From the NCBI GenBank assembly GCA_964106645.2, contig OZ067038.1: a DNA stretch of 64,000 nt. One strand, given 5' to 3'. The translations under genes and the position numbers were made by a program. Position 1 is the first letter of the stretch; each line of letters starts with the position of its first letter. Shown here in pieces: positions 34,172 through 61,969 of this stretch. Source of the DNA: Podarcis pityusensis. Taxonomy: Eukaryota. The notes under the pieces were generated by a model. The model made no database searches and was not told where the DNA came from. It worked only from the letters and a program-made list of their open reading frames with translations.

Positions 34172-35265
34172 TAGAATCATAGAATCATAGAGCTGGAAGA
34201 GACCACAAGGGCCATCGAGTCCAACCCCCTGCCAAGCAGGAAACACCATCAGAGCACTCCTGACATATGGTTGTCAAGCCTCTGCTTAAAGACCTCCAAA
34301 GAAGGAGACTCCACCACACTCCTTGGCAGCAAATTCCACTGTCAAACAGCTCTTACTGTCAGGAAGTTCTTCCTAATGTTTAGGTGGAATCTTCTTTCTT
34401 GTAGTTTGGATCCATTGCTCCGTGTCCGCTTCTCTGGAGCAGCAGAAAACAACCTTTCTCCCTCCTCTATGTGACATCCTTTTATATATTTGAACATGGC
34501 CATCATATCACCCCTTAACCTCCTCTTCTCCAGGCTAAACATGCCCAGCTCCCTTAGTCGTTCCTCATAAGGCATCGTTTCCAGGCCTTTGACCATTTTG
34601 GTTGCCCTCCTCTGGACACGTTCCAGTTTGTCAGTGTCCTTCTTGAACTGTGGTGCCCAGAACTGGACACAGCACTCCAGGTGAGGTCTGACCAGAGCAG
34701 AATACAGTGGCACTATTACTTCCCTTGATCTAGATGCTATACTCCTATTGATGCAGCCCAGAATTGCATTGGCTTTTTTAGCTGCCGCGTCACACTGTTG
34801 GCTCATGTCAAGTTTGTGGTCAACCAAGACTCCTAGATCCTTTTCACATGTACTGCTCTCAAGCCAGGTGTCCCCCATCTTGTATTTGTGCCTCTCATTT
34901 TTTTTGCCCAAGTGCAATACTTTACATTTCTCCCTGTTAAAATTCATCTTGTTTGTTTTGGCCCAGTTCTCTAATCTGTCAAGGTCATTTTGAAGTGTGA
35001 TCCTGTCCTCTGGGGTGTTAGCCACCCCTCCCAGTTTGGTGTCATCTGCAAATTTGATCAGGATGCCCTTGAGTCCATCATCCAAGTCGTTGATAAAGAT
35101 GTTGAATAAGACCGGGCCCAAGACAGAACCCTGTGGCACCCCACTAGTCACTCTTCTCCAGGATGAAGAGGAACCATTGATGAGCACCCTTTGGGTTCGG
35201 TCAGTCAGCCAGTTACAAATCCACTGAGTGGTAGCATAGTCAAGACCGCATTTTACCAGCTTCTT
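34172..35265 (-). mobile_element. Young 5'-truncated CR1 LINE (RT C-terminal half and 3' UTR)
   Basis: [49 protein letters not shown]; (ATTCTATG)n tail; one premature TGA at 34342-34344. Confidence 0.97.
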
Positions 35266-36937
35266 TAAAATCTCCATCCCCTCAGTAGCCTGGAAGACTC
35301 ACAACATAGCCTGCTCACGAGCACTTCCATTGGCAAAGAAGCATGCAGAAGAACAAGATTTTCCTAGGGCTGCTAACACTGTTTCCAAACTGTTTTTAAA
35401 TTACTCCATTATGATTTAAATTTGCCACGCAATTTACAATTATTAAAATCAAGTTCCTCTTGCTCGTTGTCACCAATTTTACGACCTTGGTTAGGATTCC
35501 CATACAAACAATTGTTAGCAGGCTGCTAATGTGATGATTTTCCTCTTCTTGGAAAAAATAGCACAGAACAATTTTCTCCCAATCGCAGCAGAGTCAAACA
35601 ATGCATTTGATGTTGGGCTCATCAGGAGGTCTGTGACTCAAAGTGTTGAATTCCCACGGTTTTGCAAAGTGGGATTTCAAAAACAAGAGTTTTAAAAATC
35701 AGTTGCTAAGTGCAAAAAGCAGTGACTTGTTAACTAGGTGTGGGTGTCAGAAAGAGAGGCAGAGACAGAGACACAGAGAGAGTAAGACAAAGGGAGAACT
35801 GCACAGAAACCTTTAAGGTAAAAAATCAAAATCTTCCTATTATGTCAGATGGGGGGGCAGGATCTAGGCTTTGCAGTTTGTGGACTATGGAGAGGAATTG
35901 GCAGCACATGACCTGAAATGTTTTATTTCTGATTATTGTGTGAAGTTTTAGGAGTTGTTTTTAAGAATATGTTCTGGTGCTTATGTATTTTTATTGTACT
36001 TAGCTTTATAAGCCAGCTCATGTGGTCATTTTTTCAGAGTGATTAGCAGCAGAAAAATAATATAATTCCATTACTTGTTTTTAAAAGGGTGGCAACATAT
36101 TGCCCTGTAAATTCAGCCTGAGCCCCTTGTAATATTTTTGTAGCTAGTAATTATATTGCTCCTGCAGGTCACTTAAACCAAATGTGTAGCCACATGAATT
36201 TCAGCAGTGCATGAATTTCAGCAGTGCACAGTGGTTGAGTGGCCATAAAAAGTAAATTGCTGCCCACCTTCAGAGCAGCAAAATATATTCAAAAACACAA
36301 ATGGAATTCCCTACTCTCTACCAACTCTCCTGAACTCACTGAGAAAAAGTGAGTGTTGAGGGAATATTTTGTTCTCCAATTCCCACACCCCAACAACAGC
36401 TACTTGAGCTTGAATAAACACGACAATCATATTCATGTTACCTAACATAAAATTATGACTAGGCTTTCTAGTATAAACTTTACAGAGATGTCACTAAAAT
36501 GAAAGTTCCTCAGTCTATGTTAAATATATGATCTTCAAAAATGCTTGCCTATTTGAACCCCTGAATACTAAAAAGCATCTGCTCAAGCCAACAAACTTAA
36601 GTGGACATACCTTCCATGTCTCTTGATTTTTAAAAAAGTTTTAAGTTAGGCCTTCAGTCAGCCTCCATGGAAATGCACTGACTACTTGTGCATTTTCTAG
36701 TCCTAGCTGTCGAACCGTGCAAATTCTCAACAAGTTAATCAAATCAGCATCACTTTTCAATAACGTCAATAACTGTTAAGCAGCAGTAGCAGGATGGGTT
36801 CTGGCTGGGAGGTGGATACTAACCTTAGCCTCCCCAGACCTTTTCTGTTGCATGGTACCTGGTGAATGGCAACCTACTGAAGCAGCCAGAAAGCCTGGCT
36901 AGCTCCCCCACTAAGGGCTTTTGGGAGGCAAAGGGTC

Positions 36938-57315: not shown

Positions 57316-57834
57316 GGTCTCATCACCTCCTGGCAAATAGAAGGGGACGAAATGGAGGAAGACATCGCCTTGCCAACAAAGGTCTGTATAGTGAAAGCTA
57401 TGGTTTTCCCAGTAGTGATGTATGGAAGTGAGAGCTGGACCATAAAGAAGGCTGATCGCCGAAGAATTGATGCTTTTGAATTATGGTGCTGGAAGAGACT
57501 CTTGAGAGTCCCATGGACTGCAAGAAGATCAAACCTCTCATTCTGAAGGAAATCAGCCCTGAGTGCTCACTGGAAGCACAGATCCTGAAGCTGAGGCTCC
57601 AAGACTTTGGCCACCTCATGAGAAGAGAAGACACCCTGGAAAAGACCCTGATGTTGGGAAAGATTGAGGGCACAAGGAGAAGGGGACAACAGAGGAGGAG
57701 ATGGTTGGATAGTGTTCTCGAAGCTACCAGCATGAGTCTGACCAAACTGCGGGAGGCAGTGGAAGACAGGAGTGCCTGGCGTGCTCTGGTCCATGGGGTC
57801 ACGAAGAGTCGGACATGACTAAACGACAACAACA
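57316..57834 (+). mobile_element. RTE-BovB LINE, 5'-truncated, with internal deletion
   Basis: PTKVCIVKAMVFPVVMYGSESWTIKKADRRRIDAFELWCW; LEKTLMLGKIEG; AWRALVHGVTKSRT; CTAAACGACAACAA tail; possible TSD AGTAACT. Confidence 0.95.
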
Positions 57835-58597
57835 AGTAACTTGTGTGCTTATTTCCAAGACTGGGTTCATGCAAAACTCAAATCAATTTTCAAATTGCAG
57901 TACTGTAACTAGATGAATGATGAACTATAAGCTTCTAAATCTCTCATCAAATCTCTGTGCTCATGGCAGAATTTTCCTAAAAGCCCTGGCTGTCCTTAAA
58001 TCTGATACCATGAGTCAACAGTAACATTCCTGATCTAAATTTCTGCTACTATATTGGGGCCTGCTAGCCTCAGCATGTGCTTTATAAAGCACCAAGAACT
58101 AAGGTTTGCAGTGAATTTGGTTGCTGTTAACATGCTGCTAACATGTGAGAGTGAGAACAAGGCACTCATTCAATAAGGGGCATCAAAAGAGCCTAAATAA
58201 TTCAGAAAAAGCCACTGATATTAATTGCTGTACAGTAAGTTTGTTCAAGAAGCCTTGGTATAACAATACCAAGCTGCCGCATACACCCCAGATCAAGTAA
58301 ATCAATAAAAATACTTATTAATTTACCCACTAAATTTGATTTATCTGACCCCCACTAACATGAAGCCTGCCCCCCCAACATAAATCCTGGCTACGCCCAT
58401 GAATAATAACTAACTGGGGAAAACAACTACAATACATTAATAAACAGGGAACATAAAAGGAAGAGAGGAAAGCTGTTATAGGAGAGAGAACTGAATGTAA
58501 AAGGATACGGGAGGTGAGATGAAAACAACTGGAGATAATAAGGTATAAGGAGAATGGGAGAAGAAATTACAGGGGCTGAGTAAAATACGTTCAGAGG

Positions 58598-59359
58598 TGT
58601 CAGGGGTTCAGGAGCAGAGGCAAGGGCAAGGGAGGAAACAGAGAGCGAGGGGGAGGAGGCAGAAGAAAAGATGAGTGATGACGACGACCCGAGATCTCCG
58701 AGTCTTTCCAGTGAATCAGAAGATTCACAGAAAGGAGCACCAGTGGCCAGGGCAAGGGGGGAGCCTAGGGGGACACCCCAGGAAGATAGAGCCAGAGGGG
58801 ACTCAGAGGGGAGCAGTTGGAAATCGGGACCAGCGTCACCGCCAGAGAGCAGGGAAGAGGAAGGGCGCCAGGGATCAAGCGCTGGCAGCTCACAACAGGG
58901 GGGAGGGCACGAGTCAGGAGTGGCCACACCTCCATCGGGGAGCGAAGAAACGGTCAGACGGAAGGTGGAAGGTTGGGCGCGCGCGCCAAGTTCAAATGCA
59001 CAGGAAGGTGGCGCAGTAGGCAGCCCGGAAAGGGAGCCAGGTCCTAAAGCCCGCCGAAAGGAGGGAGAAGAGTCAGGGGGGTCAGCATCAGCGTCAGAGG
59101 AATCCCGGAAGGAAGAGACCCCGGGGGGCAGAGGGACCCAGAGAAGAACAGTCAGGCGGAAAAGGTGGAGCAAGGCTAGGATATTAAGTTGGTGTACAAG
59201 GGGCAGAGACTCAGATGGAGCTTCGCCGATCTAACCATTAGACGTAGGGTTGCACGCAGCAGCTTGAGAATGGAAACTGTAACTCAATAAAGACTTTTAT
59301 TTAATGATCGCTGGCTAGCGTGATCCTCTGTGAGCTAGGATCTGGAAGCAACTCTGACA
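58598..59359 (+). mobile_element. Solo LTR (762 bp), probably Gypsy-type
   Basis: Termini TGTCAG...CTGACA, exact 5-bp TSD AGAGG (58593-58597, 59360-59364), AATAAA at 59286-59291. Confidence 0.9.
58671..59234 (+). CDS. Hypothetical LTR-encoded ORF, 187 aa, low-complexity S/E/G/R-rich with basic C-terminus
   Basis: ATG-initiated ORF wholly inside the solo LTR; frame already open from LTR base 2; stop ~50 nt before AATAAA; no recognised homology. Confidence 0.35.
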   Translation: MSDDDDPRSPSLSSESEDSQKGAPVARARGEPRGTPQEDRARGDSEGSSWKSGPASPPESREEEGRQGSSAGSSQQGGGHESGVATPPSGSEETVRRKVEGWARAPSSNAQEGGAVGSPEREPGPKARRKEGEESGGSASASEESRKEETPGGRGTQRRTVRRKRWSKARILSWCTRGRDSDGASPI

Positions 59360-59462
59360 AGAGGCATGTCAGGATGTGAAGGGAAAATATATATTTAAAA
59401 AAACCTTCTCTGCTTAGAGCCTTTGGATCAGCAAATTTGGGAGGTTGAGCCACATGTCTGTA

Positions 59463-59691
59463 CAGTGGTACCTCTGGTTACGAACGCTTCTGGTTACGAA
59501 TGCTTCAGGTTGCGAGCTCCGCTAACCCAGACGTAGCTGCTCCTGGTTGCGAACTTTGCCCCAGGATGTGAATGGAAATCATGCACACAGCAAGAGGCCT
59601 CATTAGCAAAAGCACACCTCAGGATAAGAACAGTTTCAGCTTAAGGACGGACCTGCGGAATGAATTAACTTCATAACCAGAGGTACCACTG
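59463..59691. mobile_element. Tigger-like MITE (~226-bp family, diverged)
   Basis: TIRs CAGTGGTACCTCTGGTTA / TAACCAGAGGTACCACTG, TA flanks. Confidence 0.9.
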
Positions 59692-61969
59692 TACTGAGAT
59701 TCTGGGAAACTACGGAACTCCTTCCACAATGAAAATTTTGAGGCAAAGAATTTAGATATCAGTAGACAGGGATGTCAGCAATTTCCAGCTGATTATGCCA
59801 AATTCTGACTCCATCTGTTTCCATTCTGTGATTGGCTCTACCCCTGCACCACCACTTTGTGATTGGTGGTCCTCAGTAATTTTCAACCATCTCAAGTTGA
59901 CCCTAGTGGTAAGAAAGTTTGAGAATCCCTGCTCTAGGGCATCAGAAAGTTTTCTGATGCAAGTTATCCTATGCAAATTTCCAGATGATTTTTCTAATTC
60001 AAATATTCCTGGAAAACCCACATCACTGGTACTGGGTTAAATAGGCAATGAGAGCAATGAGGCAAGGAGTTCACATTGCTACTGAAGCAAATAGTTGCTC
60101 ATACTGTGGAGCTGATTTGGAGGGGAAGGTTTTATAAGGCCTGTTACTGGCCCATTTGCTTGTGAGATTAGTGTGGGGTTAGTTAACAGTCAAGCCCCCT
60201 TGGATCAAAAAGTTTAATCTGTCTGGTTAACAGATGAGAGTGCTGGTGGGTACAGGCACTAAGACACTAAGTTATCCCCATTCAAGATCTTTCCTAGAAG
60301 AGTCTCTGTACCTTTAGAGCAGAGACTCCTTCCTCAACTCCAAGCTTAGCAGGAGATTATAATATTGTTCCTCAGTGTGCTTCCAAGCATAGGGTGGCAC
60401 AGAAGGTCCCAAACATTCTGCCTATGGCTTGGAAGGGATATATTAACTTTCACATCATACTGATCACAGACAAGTGCCTCCACAGTGCAGAGACAAGATC
60501 TCACCATTCTGGGACAAAGTCCTGGCAAGTATAAATTTTGGCTGATTACAAAGACCAGCCAACATTTAGGAACTATTAAATCCAGGTCTTCAACAAAAGC
60601 AAGCCATAATCTCTAACCCAGGGTGGGGAAACATTTTCAGCCCAAAGGCCACATTTCTTCATCAGTAACTTTTTTAGAGCTGCATGGAAAATATTTTTAA
60701 AGTGTTCGTCTGAAAAGAAACAGTCTGAGAACTTGGATTCAAAGACAATAGAATATATGTGAGAAGCCAGAGGACCAAGTCACAAATGTACACGTCTCTA
60801 ACTTTTGAAAGTTGGCAGCCTATCACAGTAAATAAGAGGAATGTTTGAGTAGGAGATGAATAATGAATGTGCTCTGAACACAACTGGAGTGTTTACAGTA
60901 GTAAACTAATTTGCACTGCTCCAACTGTTCTAACAAAATCAATAGCAGAAAGTGTCAAAAAAATAAAAGCTTTATGTGCAATTACAGCAATATAAATATT
61001 GATGCACAAAATATAACACATCTATCCACTAGATGATCAAACCTTCTTTTGGACAGCCTCCATGAGACGCACCATAAGAACTTCCAAACCAAATGCATCA
61101 AACCTCTTCATTGCTTCCTGTTTTGTTTATTTTCCAACCATGCAAGGGACTACCTGCTACTCTTATTCTCTTACTAAAGAAGTAGCTATACAAATCTCTA
61201 CAAGGAGACTAAGTAAGGCCTGCATGTGCCTGCCAGAATCAAATTGCAAACCCTAAATTATATAAATAAAAAGGCAGTATAAGTGCAGTATATGATATGA
61301 TATTGTTTTTATATTTCCTTTCAGTCCAGAAGAATCACCAATAAAATACACACCACAATAACACCAGGATTGCTTCTGCAGCGCATGGTACAGTTCTGAC
61401 AGTATATAAACCAGTAGTGCCTGAAGAGCACACATGTTAAGCAGTGAGAGTGATAAATTTAAGAACTGGGAAGAAAATCAGAAATGAATTACCCCAGATC
61501 AGAAAACTACCCTTCATGGGCAGGGCCCAAATCCTGTCCAATTTCAAAAATGGCTCATAACAGGCTCACCCCAGAATCAACAAGTCCTTCCTGCCACCTG
61601 TCTCTCCCCTTTCTCAGAAAGTGTCATTGCAAAAAAAGGAGGGGCCAATGGCAGGGAATACTGTAGAAATACTATCTTTACGAGTAGAGGTAATGTTTGA
61701 GACCCAGGTGCCCATCAAGAGGATCCATTACTATCAGGGAATATGAGAGGCTGTGTCACCAATGCCTCCCACTCCAGCAACAAAGAGGATATTGAGAACT
61801 CTATTTCCCAGGCTCCCCCAGCAACAATGGAAATCCCCTCTAGCATCCAGGCCTTTAAAAATATAGTATCTCTGGCACTGCTGAAATCTTCTACCCTACC
61901 CTTCCTGACACCATTAGTAATGGTAGGTTTGGGGGGGAAAGGGCTGGAGAAACCAGGGCTGAAGGGGTA

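Follow-up and report, generated by a model that had tools for sequence, protein, structure and literature searches.

The 211-codon open frame that fills most of a solo long terminal repeat (LTR) in the window, the 64,000-nucleotide stretch of Podarcis pityusensis DNA analysed here, is almost certainly genuine coding sequence, namely the final 211 residues of Pol of a young Tf1/sushi-type Gypsy family, severed in this copy from the upstream part of the gene. The LTR (762 bp, 58598..59359, plus strand) was placed in subfamily A of that family by its identity to other copies; among 31 scored copies, 23 were 98-100% identical to it and 8 were 82-87% identical. It begins with TGTCAG, ends with CTGACA and is bracketed by the target-site duplication (TSD) AGAGG at 58593..58597 and 59360..59364, in agreement with an earlier note on this DNA that had recognised a TG...CA LTR with a 5-bp TSD. 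The positions given in that note also stand: the frame is open from 58599 to a TAA at 59232-59234 (211 codons, 58599-59231; 58599..59234 with the stop), an ATG lies at 58671..58673 and an AATAAA polyadenylation signal, kept in subfamilies B and C, lies at 59286..59291. T accounts for 97 of the 762 bases. The full elements at loci L031 and L032 are flanked by this same LTR. Of the repeats on either side of the solo copy, that at 57500-57840 resembles a Bov-B 3′ end, and that at 59460-59700 is short and abundant in RNA reads. Elsewhere in the window, a 317-codon frame on the minus strand (34342-35298) matches reverse transcriptase (PF00078, E 3e-17) and is likely a LINE piece.

The upstream part of the frame is present in full-length copies. 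In L032 a continuous 1343-aa frame with reverse transcriptase (RT), RNase H (RH), integrase (IN) and SH3 matches ends in the window's 211 residues, and the commonest open frame among 150 copies listed is 1558 aa long. Past the chromodomain, pol runs for about 160 more codons, then through the polypurine tract, where the crossing reads GGG GGG ATG GAT GTC, and then along the whole 3′ LTR frame. The frame was open across the tract in 11/11 3′ LTRs among L001-L030, seven of which were open for all ~490-500 upstream codons fetched. The earlier note had proposed that the frame might start in the internal region and reach the 3′ LTR across the polypurine tract, and this is the arrangement seen in the full-length copies. 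Its proposal of an extra, accessory ORF was not borne out, since the frame is continuous with RT-RH-IN and forms the C-terminal end of Pol. Nor did the ATG at 58671 hold as an alternative start: alignments place Val at this position in subfamily B and a residue other than Met in subfamily C, and a separate accessory ORF beginning there was rejected because the ATG is not conserved. No conserved start codon of the frame's own, separate from pol as in a retroviral-type accessory gene, is present. In the solo LTR the promoter sits behind 97% of the frame, and the window's copy would yield no protein from it.

Full elements of about 6.5 kb, recovered from two LTR pairs, encode a Ty3-type Gag and, in a second frame that overlaps it, protease, RT, RNase H, integrase, a Tf2-type SH3 domain and a chromodomain. 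The nearest protein matches carry annotation from Podarcis muralis, and an exon of the host gene PSIP1 matches that species without a difference, as expected for a lacertid-type host. The genome holds 1412 exact polypurine-tract/LTR junctions of subfamily A/B, or ~1,400 copies, and 3595 exact matches to the first 24 LTR bases, from which roughly 770 solo LTRs are obtained by subtraction. A profile of the chromodomain built from subfamilies A-C and a sister family, D, matches HP1/CBX chromodomains (best E 4e-7). PF00385 was found on P0007-P0009, and Pfam missed the chromodomain in subfamily A itself; in A-C a cage tryptophan of this domain is replaced by Lys or Arg. In L032, gag occupies 1188-2408 and pol begins at 2249, the two overlapping in a -1 relation. 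A G GGA AAC in frame near the end of gag (L031 5235-5225, minus strand) is presumably a slippery heptamer as in PEG10. The LTR at L024, at 86% identity, is intermediate between A and B and possibly recombinant.

No tRNA primer site was found in the full elements. In its place, an 11-base stretch of the LTR, AGATGGAGCTT (59213..59223), is complementary to the sequence immediately following the 5′ LTR in both A and B, and this putative self-primer and its partner co-vary, both sides differing yet still pairing in subfamily C and family D. Self-priming is given as a trait of the Tf1/sushi group in the relevant passages of PMC6317226. From the position of the self-primer, transcription was placed as starting at 59213, 31 bases after a TATA-like TATTAA (59182..59187), a spacing that is identical in family D. 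Read in this way from the sequence, U3 would extend over 58598..59212 and be coding from end to end, and the frame would stop 22 bases into R. In raw RNA reads from a related lizard neither a start nor a poly(A) site stood out. In four runs of related lizards, at low depth, LTR reads came from both strands at ~10x the depth of the internal region, and many of them carried host flanks of various kinds.

Conservation of the frame was assessed across the three subfamilies, whose LTR identity to A is 83-86% for B and 67-69% for C. The frame is open to the common stop in 79/81 A, 7/8 B and 6/6 C LTRs examined, where many loci were chosen by similarity, one A copy was scored by eye and one has compensating single-base indels; the only indel common among A copies is of 6 bases. 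In pairwise comparisons of three pairs of single copies (Nei-Gojobori, without transition correction), dN/dS of the LTR frame was 0.255 for A-B (P 4e-10), 0.26 for A-C and 0.24 for B-C, all with P of 4e-10 or less, as against 1.57 and 0.81 in the remaining sense frames and 0.07 in the integrase core; a DNA-level A-C alignment had unstable gap lengths and was left unused. When the 99 A-B differences were placed at random, 63 +/- 4 residue changes were expected and 43 were observed (0/10000 trials as low), and no stop arose in 2.8% of the same 10000 trials. Third positions carry 54/99 of these differences against 34 expected. Islands such as SLSSESEDSQKGAP, together with the basic end of the tail, are kept at 67% DNA identity. 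The frame-conservation check suggested in the earlier note, covering indels and dN/dS, thus found frame and stop kept in A, B and C under purifying selection. Part of the constraint acts on DNA, because in A and D the TATA-like box falls on codons of the terminal LLxW motif and because dS drops from 0.73 in the integrase core to 0.43 in the LTR part.

The earlier note had cautioned that T-poor, purine-rich sequence depletes stop codons, and whether such composition could by itself account for the open frame was examined by shuffling. A plus-strand frame of at least 211 codons appeared in 0.75% of 2000 dinucleotide shuffles of the whole LTR, in 3.0% of 2000 shuffles of its first 637 bases and in 2.7-2.8% of 1000 local shuffles (50 or 100 base). 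Long frames are therefore uncommon, but for one copy alone the frame is only modestly unusual, and it is the family data, not single-copy length, that make its coding nature decisive. With about 3% of local shuffles reaching such a frame, and with the antisense frame open too, composition has something in its favour; it was nevertheless rejected as an extremely improbable explanation, given that the frame is joined to pol in every 3′ LTR checked, is under purifying selection and has been kept up in four lineages. The antisense frame, which the earlier note did not mention, is likewise open for 211 codons inside the LTR and with its flank spans 58427..59230 on the minus strand. It is open in A and B with a dN/dS of 0.30, yet it shares its third codon positions with the sense frame, lacks an ATG inside the LTR part and is interrupted by one stop in subfamily C. 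We consider an antisense gene very improbable and read this frame as a shadow of the sense frame.

A sister family with a shorter version of the same arrangement, family D, was reached through P0007. It has a 410-bp LTR, an intact chromodomain and 53-54% identity over integrase, and is represented by 1371 copies by exact junction pattern. Its pol reads 100 codons into the 3′ LTR, in the same frame across the polypurine tract, and stops just past the self-primer; the stop lies 20-25 bases after the inferred transcription start in A and D alike. The proteins P0156 and P0163 end as in family D. In a quick midpoint-rooted tree of 40 rows, 3 of the original 43 having been removed because they overlapped too little, the families with the tail group in a single branch (SH-aLRT 100), which also takes in P0010, a chimeric gene model without the tail. 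All named members of this branch are Podarcis, and its neighbours are amphisbaenian and cobra sequences that lack the FxGF motif described below, one of them partial. At L105, a family D copy carries an inserted subfamily A LTR within its own 3′ LTR.

The LTR-coded part of the tail is of low complexity, with Ser, Glu, Gly and Arg making up 123/211 residues, and across families it ranges from 100 to 218 codons, being twice as long in A-C as in D. The 211 residues have no Pfam match and no look-alike in the ESM Atlas. AlphaFold2 models of five sequences fold only the chromodomain, and almost all of the LTR part has pLDDT <50. The LTR part is first acidic and then neutral, and closes with a +6 basic stretch that is kept in all families. 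This last stretch (59142..59192) consists of a basic cluster followed by S-x-x-x-[IL]-L-x-W, with a short helix predicted, and its final four codons overlap the TATA-like box. The basic, Trp-containing tail pointed out in the earlier note is accordingly conserved, but its ILSW part coincides with the TATA-like box; a putative nuclear localisation signal (NLS) is the simplest reading of the basic end. A possible resemblance between the C-terminal motif and Myb or calponin-homology helices was considered and set aside.

Directly after the chromodomain, and upstream of the LTR, lies a second short motif, F-x8-FxGF, in a single register in A, B, C and D. FxGF is present in 9/9 tail-bearing proteins P0001-P0009 and in loci of all four groups. 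The 8-residue linker is Ser/Thr-rich in A-C and acidic in D and five further proteins (P0153, P0156, P0158, P0163 and P0168), which have strongly acidic versions of the motif; D-like families often carry a second copy. The predicted motif helix is 4 residues long, with pLDDT near 59. In the passages describing it, the TND-interacting motif (TIM) comprises a hydrophobic residue plus Phe, a linker, FxGF and an acidic flank (PMC9987994; 10.1101/624023). A TIM would be expected to have a short helix with a hydrophobic anchor and an acidic or phosphorylatable linker of 8-16 residues. By its shape F-x8-FxGF resembles a LEDGF/TND-binding motif and is a candidate TIM, and the strongly acidic versions agree with the description in PMC9987994. 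The entries P0168, P0158 and P0153, annotated in Podarcis as 'Chromo domain-containing protein', are incomplete members of additional families and have textbook helix-acidic-FxGF motifs.

By its features the element appears to be a Tf1/sushi-type chromovirus, the tree having been built without a named Tf1 or sushi reference. It shares with that group a Ty3-type Gag, the PR-RT-RH-IN order, a Tf2-type SH3 domain, a chromodomain after integrase, a 5-bp TSD and an 11-base self-primer replacing the tRNA site; the self-primer of Tf1 is 11 bases long. Of the LTR ends TGTYANR...CNTNACA given for Tf1/sushi elements in passages of PMC3601003, the 5′ end fits and the 3′ end fits at 6/7 positions in A and 7/7 in D. 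It differs from the group in the lost cage tryptophan of A-C and in the length of its Pol: the fish and fungal relatives found end 100-170 residues past GPY/F, whereas the lizard lineage continues for 280-520 residues, into the LTR. Two of these relatives, P0017 and P0020, are longer only via unrelated fused sequence.

The closest parallel for the extension itself is in plants. Passages of PMC3059260 and PMC3605345 describe a pol that reads into the 3′ LTR as the defining feature of CRM group A, with the LTR encoding the CR targeting motif, and the coding region of the lizard element extends into the 3′ LTR in the same way. CRM elements, however, are primed by tRNA-Met, carry the CR motif instead of a chromodomain and inhabit plants, whereas the lizard element is self-priming, keeps its chromodomain upstream of the tail and has a vertebrate host; the resemblance is convergence, not membership. 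The localisation of CRM is centromeric; the lizard clusters overlap a 503-bp satellite but also adjoin telomere repeats. The earlier note remarked that ORFs overlapping the LTR are not standard among Gypsy elements; as far as found this is true of vertebrates, but in plants such reading defines CRM group A, according to the passages on that group (PMC3059260). The literature searched yielded no vertebrate precedent for pol reading into the LTR and no report of an FxGF motif in a retrotransposon, a search whose scope excluded key older papers and Repbase, so that a prior description is possible.

Other comparisons concern how tails and U3 are used. MMTV sag and lentiviral nef have coding sequence within U3, as does the lizard element, and each yields a distinct protein from a start and an RNA of its own, whereas the lizard frame is one with pol. 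In TIMs of the LEDGF/HRP2 partners MLL1, JPO2, IWS1 and JIL-1, a hydrophobic residue plus Phe, a linker of 8-10 residues, FxGF and an acidic flank are found as in the lizard motif; these were described in host proteins, whereas the lizard motif lies before the LTR and has a Ser/Thr-rich linker in A-C. The viral example given in a review is lentiviral integrase (PMC9987994). In the yeast elements Ty1 and Ty5, short motifs of the integrase tail likewise tether to host factors (titles cited in 10.1101/2021.07.27.453949), but these are Copia elements and their tail is not LTR-encoded.

The genomic distribution of the two families differs. Among 150 copies listed for each, 54 of subfamily A and 7 of family D lie within 1 Mb of a chromosome end (P 5e-12); on C1-C5 only, the counts are 54/149 for A and 1/58 for D, with 1.7% expected. 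The other 96 of the 150 A copies listed are in chromosome interiors, as is the copy in the window. Of 85 A/B junctions on C1, 28 are terminal (5 in the first Mb and 23 in the last) and 57 lie in the 137.7 Mb between, while family D is found at 0.93 per Mb, the genome mean, across the first 108 Mb of C1. Element pieces were present in 20/32 contig-end stretches and in 9/12 of those with telomere repeats, some of them adjoining the repeats. Dense A clusters coincide with a 503-bp AT-rich satellite, located from 150 of 322 matches, at one end of C1, C2, C5, C9, C10 and C12 and inside C19, with blocks at C1:138.88-139.66 Mb, the C2 start, the C5 end and C19:10.4-10.6 Mb. Lacertid chromosomes are acrocentric, and the satellite, which subfamily A has heavily invaded (L087, L088, L092, L096, L082), is a candidate centromeric or subtelomeric repeat. 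Invasion of satellites by transposons is widespread, according to passages of 10.64898/2026.09.17.752431 that do not mention lizards. Seven end-region insertions have seven different TSDs, and the nested copies L089, L091 and L096 have no matching TSD pair. Clustering could also arise by slower removal or local duplication, and retention can mimic targeting (PMC12477314). Since family D has an LTR-coded tail but an even spread, read-through alone cannot account for the enrichment at ends.

We propose that the 211 codons are probably part of a predicted-disordered integrase tail that would act in nuclear import and in attachment to host chromatin proteins. Genomic RNA would start at the equivalent of 59213 in the 5′ LTR, so that only the U3 of the 3′ LTR would be translated, and the tail would be made as the end of Gag-Pol via a -1 frameshift. 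After protease cleavage, a tail of roughly 370 residues would stay on integrase, where its short motifs, the helix-linker-FxGF before the LTR and the basic cluster at the end within it, may bind host factors. In A-C, which have lost a cage tryptophan and have the longer LTR part, the tail might steer insertion to satellite blocks and chromosome ends. LTR-LTR recombination, an established mechanism, would have left the window's solo copy with its one TSD pair. Targeting of ends or satellites through the tail is conceivable rather than likely. A bolder and similarly tentative view is that this is a lizard counterpart of the plant centromeric retrotransposons, in which the integrase end moved into the LTR independently and came to mimic the LEDGF/TND motif found in host elongation factors, with one branch rewired to telomeric and centromere-side satellite chromatin and its sister branch, whose chromodomain is intact and whose motifs are acidic, inserting genome-wide. 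Against this are the Ser/Thr-rich linker in A-C, the position of the motif upstream of the LTR and the expected preference of LEDGF-type tethering for gene bodies, the opposite of satellites (PMC9987994).

Two other accounts accept that the frame is translated from the element and differ on what becomes of the product. The tail could be an inert spacer. Selection would then act only against premature stops, for instance since a stop close to the poly(A) site protects the RNA from the decay that long 3′ ends bring about, and in favour of promoter bases, and the clustering at ends would reflect retention. Its low complexity, the variable length of the LTR part, the position of the stop so soon after the inferred start in A and D and the TATA overlap are all compatible with this. 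Stop avoidance, however, does not yield a dN/dS of 0.25 with the observed excess of third-position changes, nor the islands and basic end kept in the most divergent subfamily, and family D, equally abundant, lacks end clustering; we therefore regard the spacer as unlikely. Less likely again is a free accessory protein, RNA-binding or anti-silencing, which the element's protease would release or a spliced RNA would encode. In A, B and C the 5′ LTR is followed by a donor-like A|GTAAG and the polypurine tract contains an ATG, and an acceptor-like pyrimidine run is present after the chromodomain. Both the donor and the tract ATG are absent from family D, the ATG at 58671 is not conserved, and no spliced joint from the donor was listed in the four related-lizard runs, at ~45 reads deep at the donor in bulk runs and with 6-12% of each raw run read.

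The choice of insertion sites by vertebrate Gypsy elements is little known. Subfamily A/B and family D, both young and equally abundant in one genome, have an LTR-coded tail in common and contrasting distributions, and offer a natural paired test of targeting by the integrase tail. A LEDGF/TND-type motif, if borne out in the integrase of a retrotransposon, would bring endogenous elements within the HIV-LEDGF theme. In practical terms, lacertid genomes hold thousands of LTRs in which a frame of 200 codons could be mistaken for a gene by readers and gene finders.

Chromosome ends yielded some further observations. Copies of subfamily C run straight into telomere repeats or variants of these (L098 2340-2560; L100 4850; L069, minus strand, 2581), and at L098 the LTR stops half-way and gives way to degenerate repeats, as though a break had healed. 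At L068, the C5 start, the first 3 kb of the contig is a 46-bp GC-rich tandem array.
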